A stretch of 21,150 nt of DNA from a virus. Taxonomy: Duplodnaviria; Heunggongvirae; Uroviricota; Caudoviricetes. Shown here one piece after another: positions 9,001 to 15,000 of this stretch. Made by a program: the position numbers. Location: positions 1 through 21,150 of IMG/VR virus record IMGVR_UViG_2648501392_000022; one strand, written 5' to 3'. Position 1 is the first letter of the stretch. Each line of letters opens with the position of its first letter.

Positions 9001-12000
9001 AACCGGTGGCATTAACAGCAACACGCATTCCTGAGCGGATCCACCGGCAGGCATTGCAGGTCCTGTTGTTGTACCGATGCCGACGGATATTTCCGCATCG
9101 GATACAGCGCACCGGATATCTCAGTCTGAAGGTTAACCGTCGCTGGCGGCTGTTATCGAAAGACGACGGCCGGAACTGGGAAGTAATGAGTCATGAACGT
9201 TATTCGGGAGAAATAAAGAAATGATCGACAACCGCACCGCCAGCACCATTGACCAGGCATTACAGAAACATGATACACCCGTCGGCCCGTTATTTTTTGT
9301 AACACGCCACGGAAGAACAAAAAAATGCCTCACCCGAAAAACGGCAATTCGTTACCTGGCATTCTTTATGACCACCCGCGCTTTTGAACGTTCAGGATTC
9401 CGACAACGCTATCCTGACAAGCGTTTTATCTTCAACAGGAATGAGATATGGAAACGTGGAGAATCAACCACAGAGTATACCCGCGCACACCAGCGAACAA
9501 TCAGACGACTGCGCAGACTCATCGCCAGGAAACAGTATACAGAAAAATGGTTCAGAAAATATGACACATGGAGCGCCGGATATTACGAACTGATGGCAAC
9601 AAAACCATTCTGACGTAAACGAAATTAACCATGACGCAATTAAATAAGGCAAGCCGAATACATCAGGAGGACCATGAACATTTATTTCAGAATAGTTATA
9701 TCACTGGCAATTATCACATGTATTTACGGATTAATCGTTCCGGCCCTCATATCAATGAAGGATACGGTAGCAGTGATTTCTGGCTTTGCTCTGGCGTGTC
9801 TGACCCCGCCCTGCATTTATGCCATTTATAAGGGTCTTTCTTTTTCTAAGGATAAAAGATGAAAAAATTACTTTTTGCTTTAGCCCTTGTTCTGCCGACC
9901 ATTGGCCTTGTCGGTTGCGATCGCGTTGAGCCTGGTAATGTGGGCATCAAAGTAAACAAACTGGGCGACGATAAAGGCGTCGGTGAAGTGGTCGGTGTTG
10001 GGCGCTACTGGACGGGATGGAACACTGAGGTTTACATCTTCCCGACCTTTAAGCAGATGAAGACCTACGATGATCCATTCAGTTTCCAGATGAGTGACGG
10101 TACAACCATCGGCTATCACATCGGCGTGGCCTACAAAGTTGATCCATCCAAAGTTACCACAGTCTTTCAGACCTACCGCAAAGGCGTGGACGACATTACC
10201 GACACCGACCTGCGCCAGAAGATAGCCGACGCACTCAACCGACTGGCCAGCAAAATGACCACCGACAAATTTATCGACGGCGGCAAGTCTGAGCTGCTGG
10301 ATGCAGCTCTTAAAGACATTCAGGAAGAAATGACGCCCATCGGTATTCAGGTAATGAGCCTCTCATATGTGGGTAAGCCGGAGTACCCGCCTACTGTTAT
10401 CGACAGCATTAATGCCAAAGTCACGGCGAACCAGAAAACCCTGCAACGCGAGCAGGAAGTAAAACAGCGCGAAGCGGAAGCCAACATGTTGCGCGCGGAA
10501 GCTGCCGGACAGGCAGATGCGATTCGCACAAAAGCCCAGGCCGAAGCCGATGCTATTCGTTTACGCGGTGAAGCTCTGCGCCAGAACCCCGGTGTTATGG
10601 AGCTGGAAGCCATCAACAAGTGGAACGGTACACTGCCGCAATACATGACCAGCGGTGCCAACACACCATTTATTCAGGTTAAGTAATACATATGCCCGGT
10701 ATTACACGCCGGGCTGTCTGGAGATAAAAATGAATATTGTAACCATCAACAACAAACAGTTTCCGGTAATCGAATATCGCGGTCAGCGTGTTGTGACATT
10801 TGCAATAATTGATGACGTCCACCAGCGCCCGGAAGGTACCGCCCGTGCTGCGTTTAACCGCAACCGTTCTCACTTTATCGAAGGGGTGGATTTTCTTGAA
10901 ATGACTGCGGACGTAATACGTACGGAGTCACTTTCTGATGCCTTTGCCGCGCGAACTGCCAAAGGGATCATTCTTTTCGAGTCTGGTTACCTGATGTTGA
11001 CGAAGCCTTTTAACGATGCTCTTGCATGGCAGGTTCAGCGCGAACTGGTTAACAGCTATTTCCGAACTCACGCGCCGCTGACGGAAATGGAGATGATCGC
11101 TGCAATGGCCGCCGATGCCGTTCGCCAGCAGAAGCGCCTGAGTCATGTTGAAGAGAAGATCGAAACGGTCACCAAAGCTGTGGAGAACATCAAACGCGGC
11201 ACAATGCGCACCGGATATGTCGGTTACCGCCAGGTGGTAGCCAAAAGCGGAATGAGTGACGCCAAGTGTCGGAATCTGGTCAACGCCTACCACATCCCTA
11301 CCGACACGCACGAATTTATGACTCCGGACGGTCTGTTGTCTCGCAGGGCTGTCGTCGAGCTTGAGACATTTATGGCGGCGTTCCACCAAATGATGTCAGA
11401 GGCTGAACCACGCGGCACACGCTGGTATCACCCGAAGATGGGGCTTTTTCAGGTAATCGGATGGGAGGATAAAGCATGATCATCCAGTCAAAACTTATTC
11501 GCGCCGCTCTGGTGTGCGCTGCTAAAAACGACGTTCGTTATTACCTGAACGGTCTTCACATCACGCCAAAACATATTGAGGCAACCAATGGTTTCGTAGC
11601 ACTGCGCATGACTCACGGCATCCGGACGAAGAAAAACATCATTGTCCAGTTCGAAGGTGGCGTCCCGGCCAAAGCCGAAACGACAGAGCTGATTTTTAGT
11701 AAAGAGCCGATCCTGTTCATCGCGACCAGTTTCAGCGCCGGCTGTCCATTACCGGCATTAAATTGGTGGACGGTTGTTTTCCGGATTTGGAACGCATCAT
11801 TCCGAAAAAATTTGACCTCTGTACACACCCGGTGATCCAGGCGGGTTACCTGAGTTATCCAGAGAAGATGTTTGGTCGTGAGCGTAAATTTATTCCCGTC
11901 CAGTTACGTTCCTCCGGTGACGGGCAAGCGGTCAGAATTCAGTTTGATTCCATCATCAACTCAATGTATGGCAATCCTGAATTTGTTGTGATGCCTTGTC

Positions 12001-15000
12001 GTGATCATGGCGATTTCAATGTGGCTCAGGAGCATCCGGAATGAAAATCGAATACCAGGACGCCGCAGGAGGTGAATCAATGAGCTGGCCTGATGCAATC
12101 GTAACTCTGGGGGTGGTATTCGCAGTAGCGTTTGTTGTGTTCTCAATTTGTCGATGGGGATAACCACATGTTCGCTTTGATTCAACGCGGTCAGATATAC
12201 ACGGACAGAGCCGGATACCCCGTGGTGATTACTCGCATCACTGAGCACTCAGTGTTCTTTCGACGGATGGACGGACGATCCGGGCGGGTACGCATTGGTG
12301 AGTTAAACTGCCTGTTCGAACATATTGACCACCAGGAGTACCGCAAAATTCTCGCGGACACTGAGCAGGAAAAGCACCTGAAAAAATTACGAGCCATAAA
12401 AAGGAAGTAAAGAATGAATAAAGCATTTGAACAATGGGTCCACCAGCGTTACGGCAATCGCTATGACCTGACGCGAGATGTTGACGGCTTCTACTGTCGT
12501 GAAGTTGTGAAGCGAATGTTTGACGTGTGGTGCCACTGCCGTGGGCTGAGTGTTATGTGAGGTGATGTATGGGGCTGGATTGCGTGCCTATATCAACCTA
12601 CTGCCGCGACGCGGGAGAAACGGTTGATGCCGTTAACAAACGGATACAAAGAGGAATATGGAAAGAAGGGGTTCATGTATTAAAAGTCGACGGAGTTAAA
12701 GAACGCTGGGTCGACTTAATAGAGGTTTCAAAATGGGCAAGAAAGAACAAGGATTATTATCTCTGCCAAGAGGAGTAACTATTCGTAAGCATAAAACTGC
12801 TTCAACACTAGTTATCACTTTCACATATAAAGGGGTTCTTTGCAGGGAGCCCCTGTCTCGGCTTGAGGCAAATACACGTGGTATTAAATATGCTGAGCGC
12901 CTGCTAGGGGAGATACAAAATCAGATCGCCAGCGGAACGTTTGAATATGCGAAATATTTCCCCAGTTCCAAAAAACTGGAGTTATTCGGTGTAGTAAAGA
13001 AAACCAAAAATATTAAGTCCTATCTTGATGAATACCTGAAAATTTGCATGAACCGCAATCTGTCGCCGTCAACCATTGGCGGTTACGAAAAATGTCTATC
13101 AGCACTATCAGAACTACATAAACTACATGTAACAGAATTGACGCCTGCGGTACTAAAAAATTGGATAGCCAGCCGAAAAACTAAGCTGAAAACAATCAGG
13201 AATAACCTGTCATTTCTGCGCAGCGCCATTGATGAGGCTGTAACTGATGGCCTGTTGACTATTAACCCGGTAACTCTTGTCAGCGCCAGCCGGTATCACG
13301 TGGTCGACAGTAAACCGAACGCCGACGATTACGAAGTTGATCCGTTTGCGCCTGCGGAAACCAGTGCCATATATCAGCACTGCAAGTATCAGGAATGGCA
13401 GAATCTGTTCCGCTTCGCCTTCAATACAGGGCTACGCAGCTCTGAGCTATGCGCATTACGTTGGACCGATATCGACTTTATAGGTAATACAGCGCACATA
13501 CAGGCGGCCAGTGTCGTAGGGGTACTTAAAGGCACCAAGACAAAAGCCGGTACCCGTAAGGTGGAGCTGAACAGTGAGGCGCTGGCGGCCCTGCAGGCGC
13601 AGAAGCAATACACCTTTATGAAAAGTGAGTTCATATTCAGCGATCCGAAAACGGGAGATCCCTGGACGAACGCCGACGCTATCCGTAAAAAAGCATGGGT
13701 GCCGACCCTGAAAAAAGCTGGTGTGCGCTACCGTAACCCGTACCAGACGCGCCACACATTCGCCACCAGACACATTAGCCAGGGTGTAAACCTTTTCTGG
13801 CTTGCCGGGCAGATGGGGCATAAGGGGCCGGAAATGCTGTTCCGCAATTACGGTAAATACCTGGCTGAATACGACGGGAAAACCGCAATGGAATCTGGAA
13901 TGAAGAAGTGATTTGAAGAAAAAACCCGGCAAATGCCGGGTCTTTTTGATGGTTATTCTGTCGCGCCACCTATCGAAACATAATCATGAAATTGATCGTC
14001 AATGAGTCGGTCCTTACAGATAACATGTACAATGTGACGACAACAGTTTTCATCATCATACGCACGACCCCAGCGAACAATCTCATCTACAGACAGATCA
14101 TTCGCACTCCATGGCAAAGTACCTGAAACTCCACGCGCACCTGGACCAAGTATGTCCATAAATTTCTTCGTGCGTGAATTGTAGATCCGTACCTCGGCAA
14201 TTCGAATGATGCTACTAGCCCAAAGAGCACCACCGGCAATACTTTGAATGTTATCGCAGATGAGAAACTCATGCTTTCGCGCAAGCATTTTATAGATCTC
14301 ACGCGCCAAACCTGCTGATTGGAAATCCTGTGCGATAACAGCGCTTTTCACTTGCTTTCCGGTCATCATCTGACCGTTCTCTTCGATAAAATTAAAGTCG
14401 TTGAACTGTATACGACCTATTCTTATCGTTTTGTTATCGTCTACCATATCAAGACCCAAGAGGGTATTGACCAGATCCTGCATTGGAACCTTCGAATCAA
14501 GAAGGTCACTGCCATAGTCTAAAAAAAAGTCGTCGGTGGAACATCCCAGTTGATACACATCCAAGTAGTACTGAAACTCACCAGAACTGACAATGTACTC
14601 ATCAGCCCTCAGTAAGCCAGCCTCGGCAGTGAAAAAATAGAATGACTCAATAAGACGTTTTTCGCCAAATGGCGTAATGTTCAAGTCCTTGTTATATGAA
14701 GGTATTAACGCAGGAGCCATTCAGCAACCTTTTAATGGTAGTTAATTTCCCTGTAGTTCTTCTGCATGTATAGAGCAATTGCCGCTTCAATTTTCTTCAG
14801 CAGATTACTGCTTACATACTGAGGATACTGATCTGCTGGCTTCACAACATAGCGCAATTTTTCTTTGTTCATGGCGATCTCAGCGAACGGGATCACGTCA
14901 CCGTCACGAACCTCATTGTTCAATGTCACAATAAACAGCTGACGTGCCGGGGAGACACGATCACTCAGTCTTCTCACGAAGAACTCGTTTGCTGTGTTTG

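Follow-up and report, generated by a model that had tools for sequence, protein, structure and literature searches.

What is a half-length copy of a replication clamp doing in a phage genome, and can it still work? In bacteria, replication and repair proteins dock on a central hub, the beta clamp (DnaN), which is also an antibiotic target. A homologue of about half its length is found at 11476-12044 (+) of IMG/VR record IMGVR_UViG_2648501392_000022, a virus of the Caudoviricetes, of which positions 1 to 21,150 were analyzed (21,150 nucleotides, hereafter the window). The best overall explanation of this locus, which we consider probable, is that it is a pseudogene of a family of half-size clamps, here called mini-clamps, whose intact members would bind clamp-binding-motif peptides.

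The locus contains two overlapping open reading frames (ORFs) in different frames. According to the ORF list, ORF1 spans 11476..11835 (+, 119 amino acids, aa) and ORF2, in the downstream frame, 11763..12044 (+, 93 aa from TTG 11763). The intact counterpart is an uninterrupted 570-nucleotide gene of near-identical prophages, such as that of E. coli JNEC-KY202, whose product is WP_000586690.1 (189 aa, with the current PGAP name "beta clamp domain-containing protein"). In a pairwise alignment with the KY202 gene, the window differs by the loss of a single G and by five substitutions. The inactivating deletion is located at 11712..11713 (+), where the window reads GATC|CTG and intact copies read GATCGCTG; the wider alignment shows GCCGATC-CTG in the window versus GCCGATCGCTG in the intact JNEC-KY202 copy. 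This site is outside any homopolymer or slippery heptamer. A previous reading of the window, made from the sequence alone, had described a prophage-encoded, frame-disrupted DnaN homologue of about half the host clamp length, with no slippery site. These points agree with our results, since the intact protein has 189 residues versus the 366 of DnaN and both halves form one uninterrupted ORF in KY202 and its relatives; however, the frame switch, which had been placed at 11720-11760, lies slightly upstream.

The native N-terminal coding part, defined by the ORF list and the alignment with the intact orthologue, comprises codons 1-79 (11476..11712, +), which span most of the domain II-like module and include the pocket equivalents R21, L24, T37 and G39 according to the mapping to DnaN. 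Beyond the deletion, translation of the window and comparison with the intact protein show an out-of-frame ORF1 tail of 40 non-native residues, LFIATSFSAGCPLPALNWWTVVFRIWNASFRKNLTSVHTR (11713..11835, +), which ends at TGA 11833-11835. The rest of the native frame, encoding residues 81-189 (11715..12044, +), has become the -1 frame with respect to ORF1 and carries, by the same mapping, KLVDGCFPDLERIIP with the equivalents of P242, R246 and V247, IQAGY with those of N320 and Y323, and FVVMPCR with those of V360-R365. This frame is blocked at its 5' end by TAG TAA at 11697-11702; its mechanical ORF starts are TTG 11763 or GTG 11832, and gene callers take a 70-aa product from GTG 11832. The most that the window gene can yield is a native fragment of 79 residues followed by the nonsense tail of 40; a C-terminal fragment may be made separately.

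As a single sequence, the protein is only marginally similar to DnaN, under every curated cut-off. Its match to beta clamps of the PDB has an E-value of 2-3e-3, over DnaN 136-254. PF02767 gives 17.4 bits with the intact orthologue and 14 bits with ORF1 of the window, against a gathering threshold of 27 and with only residues 6-33 aligned, and TIGR00663 gives 19.1 bits (E 5e-4) against a cut-off of 137.65, with only residues 6-113 aligned to model positions 136-252. A precomputed PF02767 hit is also found in a distant relative (P0064). The similarity becomes clear by family profile (81.4 bits) and by fold. The profile was built from 38 diverse members, 26-46% identical to the reference member. 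The structure model was made on a member which is 82% identical to the KY202 protein (P0001); a fold search with this model identified the beta-clamp fold, and the clamp chain of PDB 7EVP is among its matches. The same fold is shown by many phage models of about 160-270 aa in BFVD, with a TM-score of about 0.6-0.8.

HMMER aligned positions 9-114 of the family profile with DnaN 137-250 (domain II and the inter-domain linker), and positions 115-186 with DnaN 305-366. DnaN constructs were then scored against the family profile. The highest score, in one contiguous alignment, corresponded to DnaN 126-252 joined to 311-366 (81.4 bits), followed by full domains II and III, which aligned split in two pieces (71.2 bits), domain II with the first half of III and the C-terminal tail (62.0 bits), and domain II with the first half of III (54.7 bits). 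The second half of domain III alone scored 20.8 bits, its first half alone 0.1 bits and domain I alone -2.9 bits. Furthermore, a profile of the C-terminal unit matches DnaN only at 315-366 (22.4 bits). The first HMMER alignments had assigned this C-terminal unit to the first half of domain III, an assignment which the construct scores reject. The mini-clamp is thus DnaN domain II plus the second half of domain III only (DnaN ~126-252 and ~311-366), and the homology to domains II-III proposed in the sequence-only reading holds except for the first half of domain III.

In the model, strands 55-59 and 69-73 are joined without a helix: the second helix that DnaN has in domain II, facing the DNA, is absent, and in its place a loop (residues 60-68) carries a proline that is almost invariant. 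The intact protein derives from DnaN and comprises a domain II without its second helix, a DGxFPD..RVIP linker and, of domain III, only the second beta-alpha-beta-beta-beta unit, which terminates in VVMPxR. In DnaN, these elements make up the hydrophobic cleft for clamp-binding motifs. DnaN itself (E. coli, PDB 1MMI; TIGR00663; PF00712/PF02767/PF02768) has 366 residues in three tandem domains and forms a head-to-tail homodimeric ring, whereas the mini-clamp has 189 residues and does not show the three domains. Mutation of I272/L273 gives a monomeric clamp variant (PMC11139829). Since the mini-clamp lacks domain I as well as the I272/L273-containing half of domain III, the canonical ring interface is impossible from either side. 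PCNA and T4 gp45, which are two-domain trimeric clamps, share with the mini-clamp the superfold and a subunit shorter than that of DnaN, and have an analogous hydrophobic pocket for partner peptides.

The residues of the clamp-binding-motif pocket (subsites I and II) were taken from a 2024 review of the beta clamp (PMC11139829). The 38 members were mapped to DnaN numbering by hmmalign --mapali, with a DnaN sequence identical to that of PDB 1MMI. At the sequence level, about 14 of the 18 pocket positions are conserved across these members. Equivalents of G174 and M362 are found in all 38, those of R152, L155 and P242 in 37 of 38, and that of P363 in 35 of 37; T172 is kept in 33 of 38, R365 in 31 of 38, and H175 and Y323 in 30 of 38 each. 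R246 appears as R or K in 33 of 38 members, V247 as V, I or L and V360 as I, V or L in 34 of 38 each, and N320 as N or Q in 26 of 38. Pocket residues account for all five of the family's lowest-entropy columns. Compared with E. coli DnaN, pocket positions have a mean identity of 0.655 and the remaining positions one of 0.185 (Mann-Whitney p 1.7e-7); mean column entropy is 1.28 bits versus 2.54 bits (p 4e-6). We are highly confident of this architecture and of the conservation of the pocket. The lineage that shed half of DnaN has thus kept exactly the cleft which binds QLxLF-type motifs.

The mini-clamp is not confined to this prophage. When 1.84 billion cluster representatives (clusters at 50% identity) were searched exhaustively with the profile, there were 7,178 matches at E<=1e-3, among which true DnaN proteins will be included, and 1,051 at E<=1e-10; nearly all of the best 150 matches have 170-214 aa. 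Using tblastn, the family was found in 253 phage records, many of them with 23-39% identity over ~80-94% of the length. The hosts of the carriers include Salmonella, Escherichia, Klebsiella, Vibrio, Acinetobacter, Burkholderia and Pseudoalteromonas. The family occurs in both temperate and virulent phages, many carriers being virulent siphoviruses of about 45 kb, and a few large plasmids or phage-plasmids carry it too. The intact orthologue matches phrog_3007 with an E-value of 5.8e-65 over residues 1-179, which places it in that family, and the window copy is a frameshifted member that matches the phage short clamp-like family in two frames. The short phage proteins named "DNA polymerase III beta subunit" and those of phrog_3007 belong to the same family as the mini-clamp; unlike the window copy, they are intact, and many are from virulent phages. 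Examples are found in Skatevirus phages such as Salmonella phage Pu29, in Escherichia phage Bas77, in Yersinia phage vB_YenS_P400 and in Pseudoalteromonas phage C7.

The labels of the family in the databases are "DNA polymerase III beta subunit", "sliding clamp" and, as the label of phrog_3007, "RusA-like Holliday junction resolvase". In the literature, the gene is mentioned as a phylogenetic marker or, by annotation transfer, as "the" sliding clamp, and no published functional or structural study of any family member was found. The family is therefore known and labelled, but its reduced architecture and pocket-only conservation appear to be undescribed. One 282-aa protein (P0013) shows a full mini-clamp, with VVMRCR for VVMPCR, fused to a tail of about 100 residues rich in E, R, L and Q. 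By eye this tail is Ea22-like and coiled-coil; since the contig is short, the protein could also be an artefact of readthrough or fusion.

Carrier genes are located in early or replication-proximal regions, and a DnaB-like helicase, a primase, methyltransferases and anti-restriction genes are found nearby. An intact mini-clamp would be a soluble module instead of a canonical ring, would bind clamp-binding-motif (QLxLF-type) peptides of host or phage proteins, and would serve for docking in early phage development, in competition with the host clamp or in its place. The sequence-only reading had suggested competition with the host clamp; this is favored, in the specific form of competition for clamp-binding-motif ligands, since no residues of the family are better conserved than those of the pocket. 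On the strength of this conservation, we give about even chances to a role of the intact relatives as a peptide-binding decoy or adaptor.

Several points weigh against this proposal. Peptide binding is inferred from conservation only, and the pocket enrichment is partly circular because pocket residues are also the most conserved of DnaN itself and anchor the alignment. Equivalents of V344, R176 and M364 are not conserved, and the H175 equivalent is F in the window allele and S in the commonest E. coli allele; therefore, these E. coli prophages may have a different ligand specificity, or their pocket may be in decay. Across the contexts examined, no partner gene was conserved. Finally, blanket sequestration seems unlikely, because several carriers depend on the clamp machinery of the host DNA polymerase III (Pol III) and a general sponge would hurt such phages. 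At least one carrier, Bas77, has no annotated DNA polymerase, and this favors a selective ligand or an adaptor role over blanket inhibition. A selective ligand is more plausible, and the candidates are Hda, delta, translesion synthesis polymerases, MutS/MutL, a phage protein, or a clamp-directed toxin or defence protein.

More broadly, and only tentatively, the intact family could be a widespread phage host-takeover factor, a free-standing mimic of the clamp cleft ("hub mimicry") which takes selected clamp-binding-motif proteins from the host clamp or hands them to the phage replisome. A conceptual parallel, with different proteins, is phage P1, a temperate phage with reduced copies of host replication-hub components: Hot is a homologue of theta and HumD a homologue of UmuD'. 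Twort Gp168 (PDB 7EVP) and MuC of phage Mu are precedents for phage manipulation of the clamp hub without sequence or fold relationship to the mini-clamp; both bind the host clamp, whereas the mini-clamp would imitate its binding site.

Among the alternatives for the intact members, the one that survives best is that they are true processivity factors, which form an oligomeric ring and tether a polymerase to phage DNA, e.g. four subunits with three beta-alpha-beta-beta-beta units each, giving the 12 of a clamp ring. The database label "DNA polymerase III sliding clamp" presupposes this function. The clamp fold, the conservation of the pocket that tethers polymerases, and the replication genes near the mini-clamp in some phages agree with it, and some carriers encode their own DNA polymerase I (Pol I), as the genome paper of fBC-Eco01 predicts for that phage (PMC9825357). 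However, ring-closing domain I and half of domain III are absent, domain II has a loop in place of one of its two helices facing the DNA, and 1.5 domains cannot build a head-to-tail ring without a new interface. Furthermore, no clamp loader is encoded near the mini-clamp genes in the contexts examined. We consider this function unlikely.

The second alternative, also raised in the sequence-only reading, is that the partial clamp heterodimerises with a protomer of host DnaN and poisons ring closure. A homologue of half the size of DnaN could suit this role, and pairing between the beta-sheet edges of clamp domains is possible in principle; however, the canonical interface is formed by domain I of one protomer and the I272/L273 region of domain III of the other, both missing in the family, and the conserved residues fall in the ligand pocket and not in an interface. 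Heterodimerisation by the normal interface is thus unlikely, and we judge ring poisoning to be quite improbable.

None of these functional proposals applies to the window copy, since it is inactivated. That 11476-12044 is a pseudogene produced by a real 1-nucleotide deletion is, in our judgement, nearly certain, and the copy is most likely non-functional. The window is 99.98% identical to the chromosome of E. coli E110019 (CP035751), with a few single-base differences, and RefSeq labels the equivalent locus of E110019 as "hypothetical protein, frameshifted". A 46-nucleotide query centred on the junction, which seeds only on copies bearing the deletion, matched solely E110019 among 5,426 complete E. 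coli genomes, and an exact junction scan of species-representative genomes gave no match. In the assemblies collection, the exact 119-aa truncated product was found in 288 blocks and on 203 contigs, and the 70-aa product from GTG 11832 on 200 contigs; one intact allele alone is present on at least 1,000 contigs. The records with the truncated product include E110019, E. coli E128010, other unrelated NCBI assemblies and an ENA metagenome, and a Logan assembly contains a near-identical allele with the same deletion and one extra single-nucleotide polymorphism.

In eight retrieved loci, the 569-nucleotide gene is 100% identical to that of the window, and the flanks are at least 99.75% identical up to window ~12545-12575. 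From this point, two of the loci (L007 and L010) carry other integrase modules: one with a 428-aa integrase adjoining mlrA and one with a 437-aa integrase adjoining yecE. The joining of three xis/int modules to one left arm indicates modular recombination among these prophages, and the presence of the frameshift allele with all three means that it is old enough not to be brand new. The sequence-only reading had left the choice between a recent inactivation and a sequencing indel; inactivation stands, without being very recent, and the indel does not.

The third alternative is that the two-frame layout is functional, by programmed -1 frameshifting or as a working split protein. The spread of the allele over some 200 contigs, the overlap between the ORF1 stop and a possible GTG restart (GTGA 11832-11835) and an A_AAA_AAT heptamer at 11805-11811 could be taken in its favor. 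However, a -1 slip can restore the native protein only within 11703-11714, because the stops at 11697-11702 close the downstream frame, and this permissive stretch shows no X_XXY_YYZ heptamer. A slip at 11805-11811 would put nonsense in place of about 30 residues (80-110), including the DGxFPD..RVIP pocket motif. The break, around residue 79 in the structure model, is inside a beta-strand region of domain II, and across the family an intact homologue is encoded by a single ORF of about 170-214 aa; those shorter entries that were inspected proved to be other frameshift alleles or partial sequences. In-silico repair of the window allele leaves two residue differences with the KY202 allele, S40F and P146S: the first is the H175-equivalent pocket position, with H as the family consensus, and the second affects a site which is P in 19 of 21 close relatives. 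Other independent frameshift alleles were found in the family: one in E. coli/Shigella with 64 cluster members (P0041), one in Klebsiella (P0054) and one in a Salmonella-like background (P0061). These frameshifts are all at A-runs (equivalents of window 11805-11810 and ~11629-11635), unlike the window deletion, and independent alleles of this kind fit the ordinary decay of a dispensable prophage gene. A functional frameshift or split gene was rejected on the frame anatomy and the single-ORF homologues, and we regard it as very improbable.

The fourth alternative, a sequencing or assembly artefact over a gene intact in the organism, could be suggested by the single positive among the 5,426 complete genomes, and by at least one other single-base difference, in the Q gene, between the complete E110019 record and the window. 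It is contradicted by the deletion site, which is not a homopolymer, and by the 203 contigs, which come from many independent projects and technologies and include a metagenome. Because the same deletion is present in the window and in CP035751, which differ elsewhere, and on those contigs of many independent assemblies, it is a genuine allele; with the three integrase modules in addition, an artefact was rejected as extremely improbable.

The weakest alternative, that the mini-clamp is a RusA-like Holliday junction resolvase, has in its favor the label of phrog_3007 (matched with an E-value of 5.8e-65) and the same product name in many phage records, and it can be dismissed as having practically no chance of being right, given that no RusA family of Pfam matches at E<=10, that both sequence profile and fold are those of a beta clamp, and that the PHROG most likely contains a wrong annotation, from which the label stems. 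One record with a RusA-like product name for a clamp-fold protein is PQ850598.1 (L017, 16967-17503).

The gene order around the mini-clamp, on the repressor-to-integrase strand, is LexA-family repressor, helix-turn-helix (HTH) gene, ParE-like, SPFH, ORF6N, mini-clamp, DUF4222 and xis/int. The window corresponds to a lambdoid E. coli prophage, in which synteny with lambda leads us to infer that the string containing the mini-clamp is the early-left operon. Directly upstream of the mini-clamp, an antirepressor-like gene with an ORF6N domain (10730..11479, +; Pfam PF10543, E 1.6e-12) is a RefSeq coding sequence in E110019 and KY202. Its stop overlaps the mini-clamp start in ATGA 11476-11479, and the two genes are translationally coupled. 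Downstream, the mini-clamp stop overlaps, in ATGA 12041-12044, the start of a hydrophobic 40-aa ORF (12041..12163, +), which is followed by the DUF4222 gene (12132/12170-12410) and by the excision/integration module with int (12733-13911), which encodes a 392-aa integrase. The same strand-run contains a 72-aa ParE-family toxin-like ORF (9006-9224), without an obvious annotated antitoxin partner, and an SPFH/Band-7 lipoprotein-like gene (9859-10686). The defence models of PADLOC-DB gave no match at E<=0.01 with the mini-clamp and seven neighbouring ORFs, the ParE-like and SPFH genes included.

The C-terminus of the ORF6N protein (window 11400-11475) ends in "...HPKMGLFQVIGWE", which resembles a clamp-binding motif, with "KMGLF" near the C-terminus. 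Immediately upstream of mini-clamp genes, a conserved C-terminal module "...EAEPRGTRWYHPKMGLFQ.IGWE" follows differing N-domains, ORF6N or Phage_pRha, at window 11400-11475, at 2303-3004 of locus L018 and at 1664-2416 of locus L022. E. coli, Klebsiella and one Providencia locus have the same antirepressor tail behind both N-domains. The tail was considered as a possible cognate ligand of the mini-clamp, but the proposed mechanism does not rely on it: other loci lack it or have an altered form (HPDFGGF in Serratia), and it is common in Ant/Roi genes without an adjoining mini-clamp.

Other differences between the window and E110019 were observed. CP035751 shows a 1.3-kb IS3-family insertion at window ~12214-12216, inside the DUF4222 gene; the window lacks this insertion and, given the near-identity elsewhere, comes from a very close relative of E110019 or from a different assembly. 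An extra C is also present in CP035751 at the equivalent of window 2033, and the annotation of that record gives the Q antiterminator as "frameshifted", whereas the Q ORF of the window is intact (~130 aa, 1678-2070, -); this difference is either real between strains or an error in the CP035751 record. In the equivalent of the TerB-family gene (window 1099-1461, -), RefSeq notes an internal stop in E110019, and the window is identical over this span; therefore, the prophage holds at least one further pseudogene.

The window locus itself is minor, a dead prophage copy already flagged as frameshifted by RefSeq. The family is of wider interest: hundreds of phage genomes carry it as "DNA polymerase III sliding clamp" or "RusA-like resolvase", the former overstating a protein of 1.5 domains and the latter almost certainly wrong. 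If hub mimicry is true, the window allele would be a natural loss-of-function variant for comparison. If phages routinely carry a cleft-only module, this would be a new way of manipulating the clamp hub, by imitation and not by binding, and the intact proteins, of about 21 kDa, would provide a natural minimal scaffold for studying or screening ligands of the clamp pocket.

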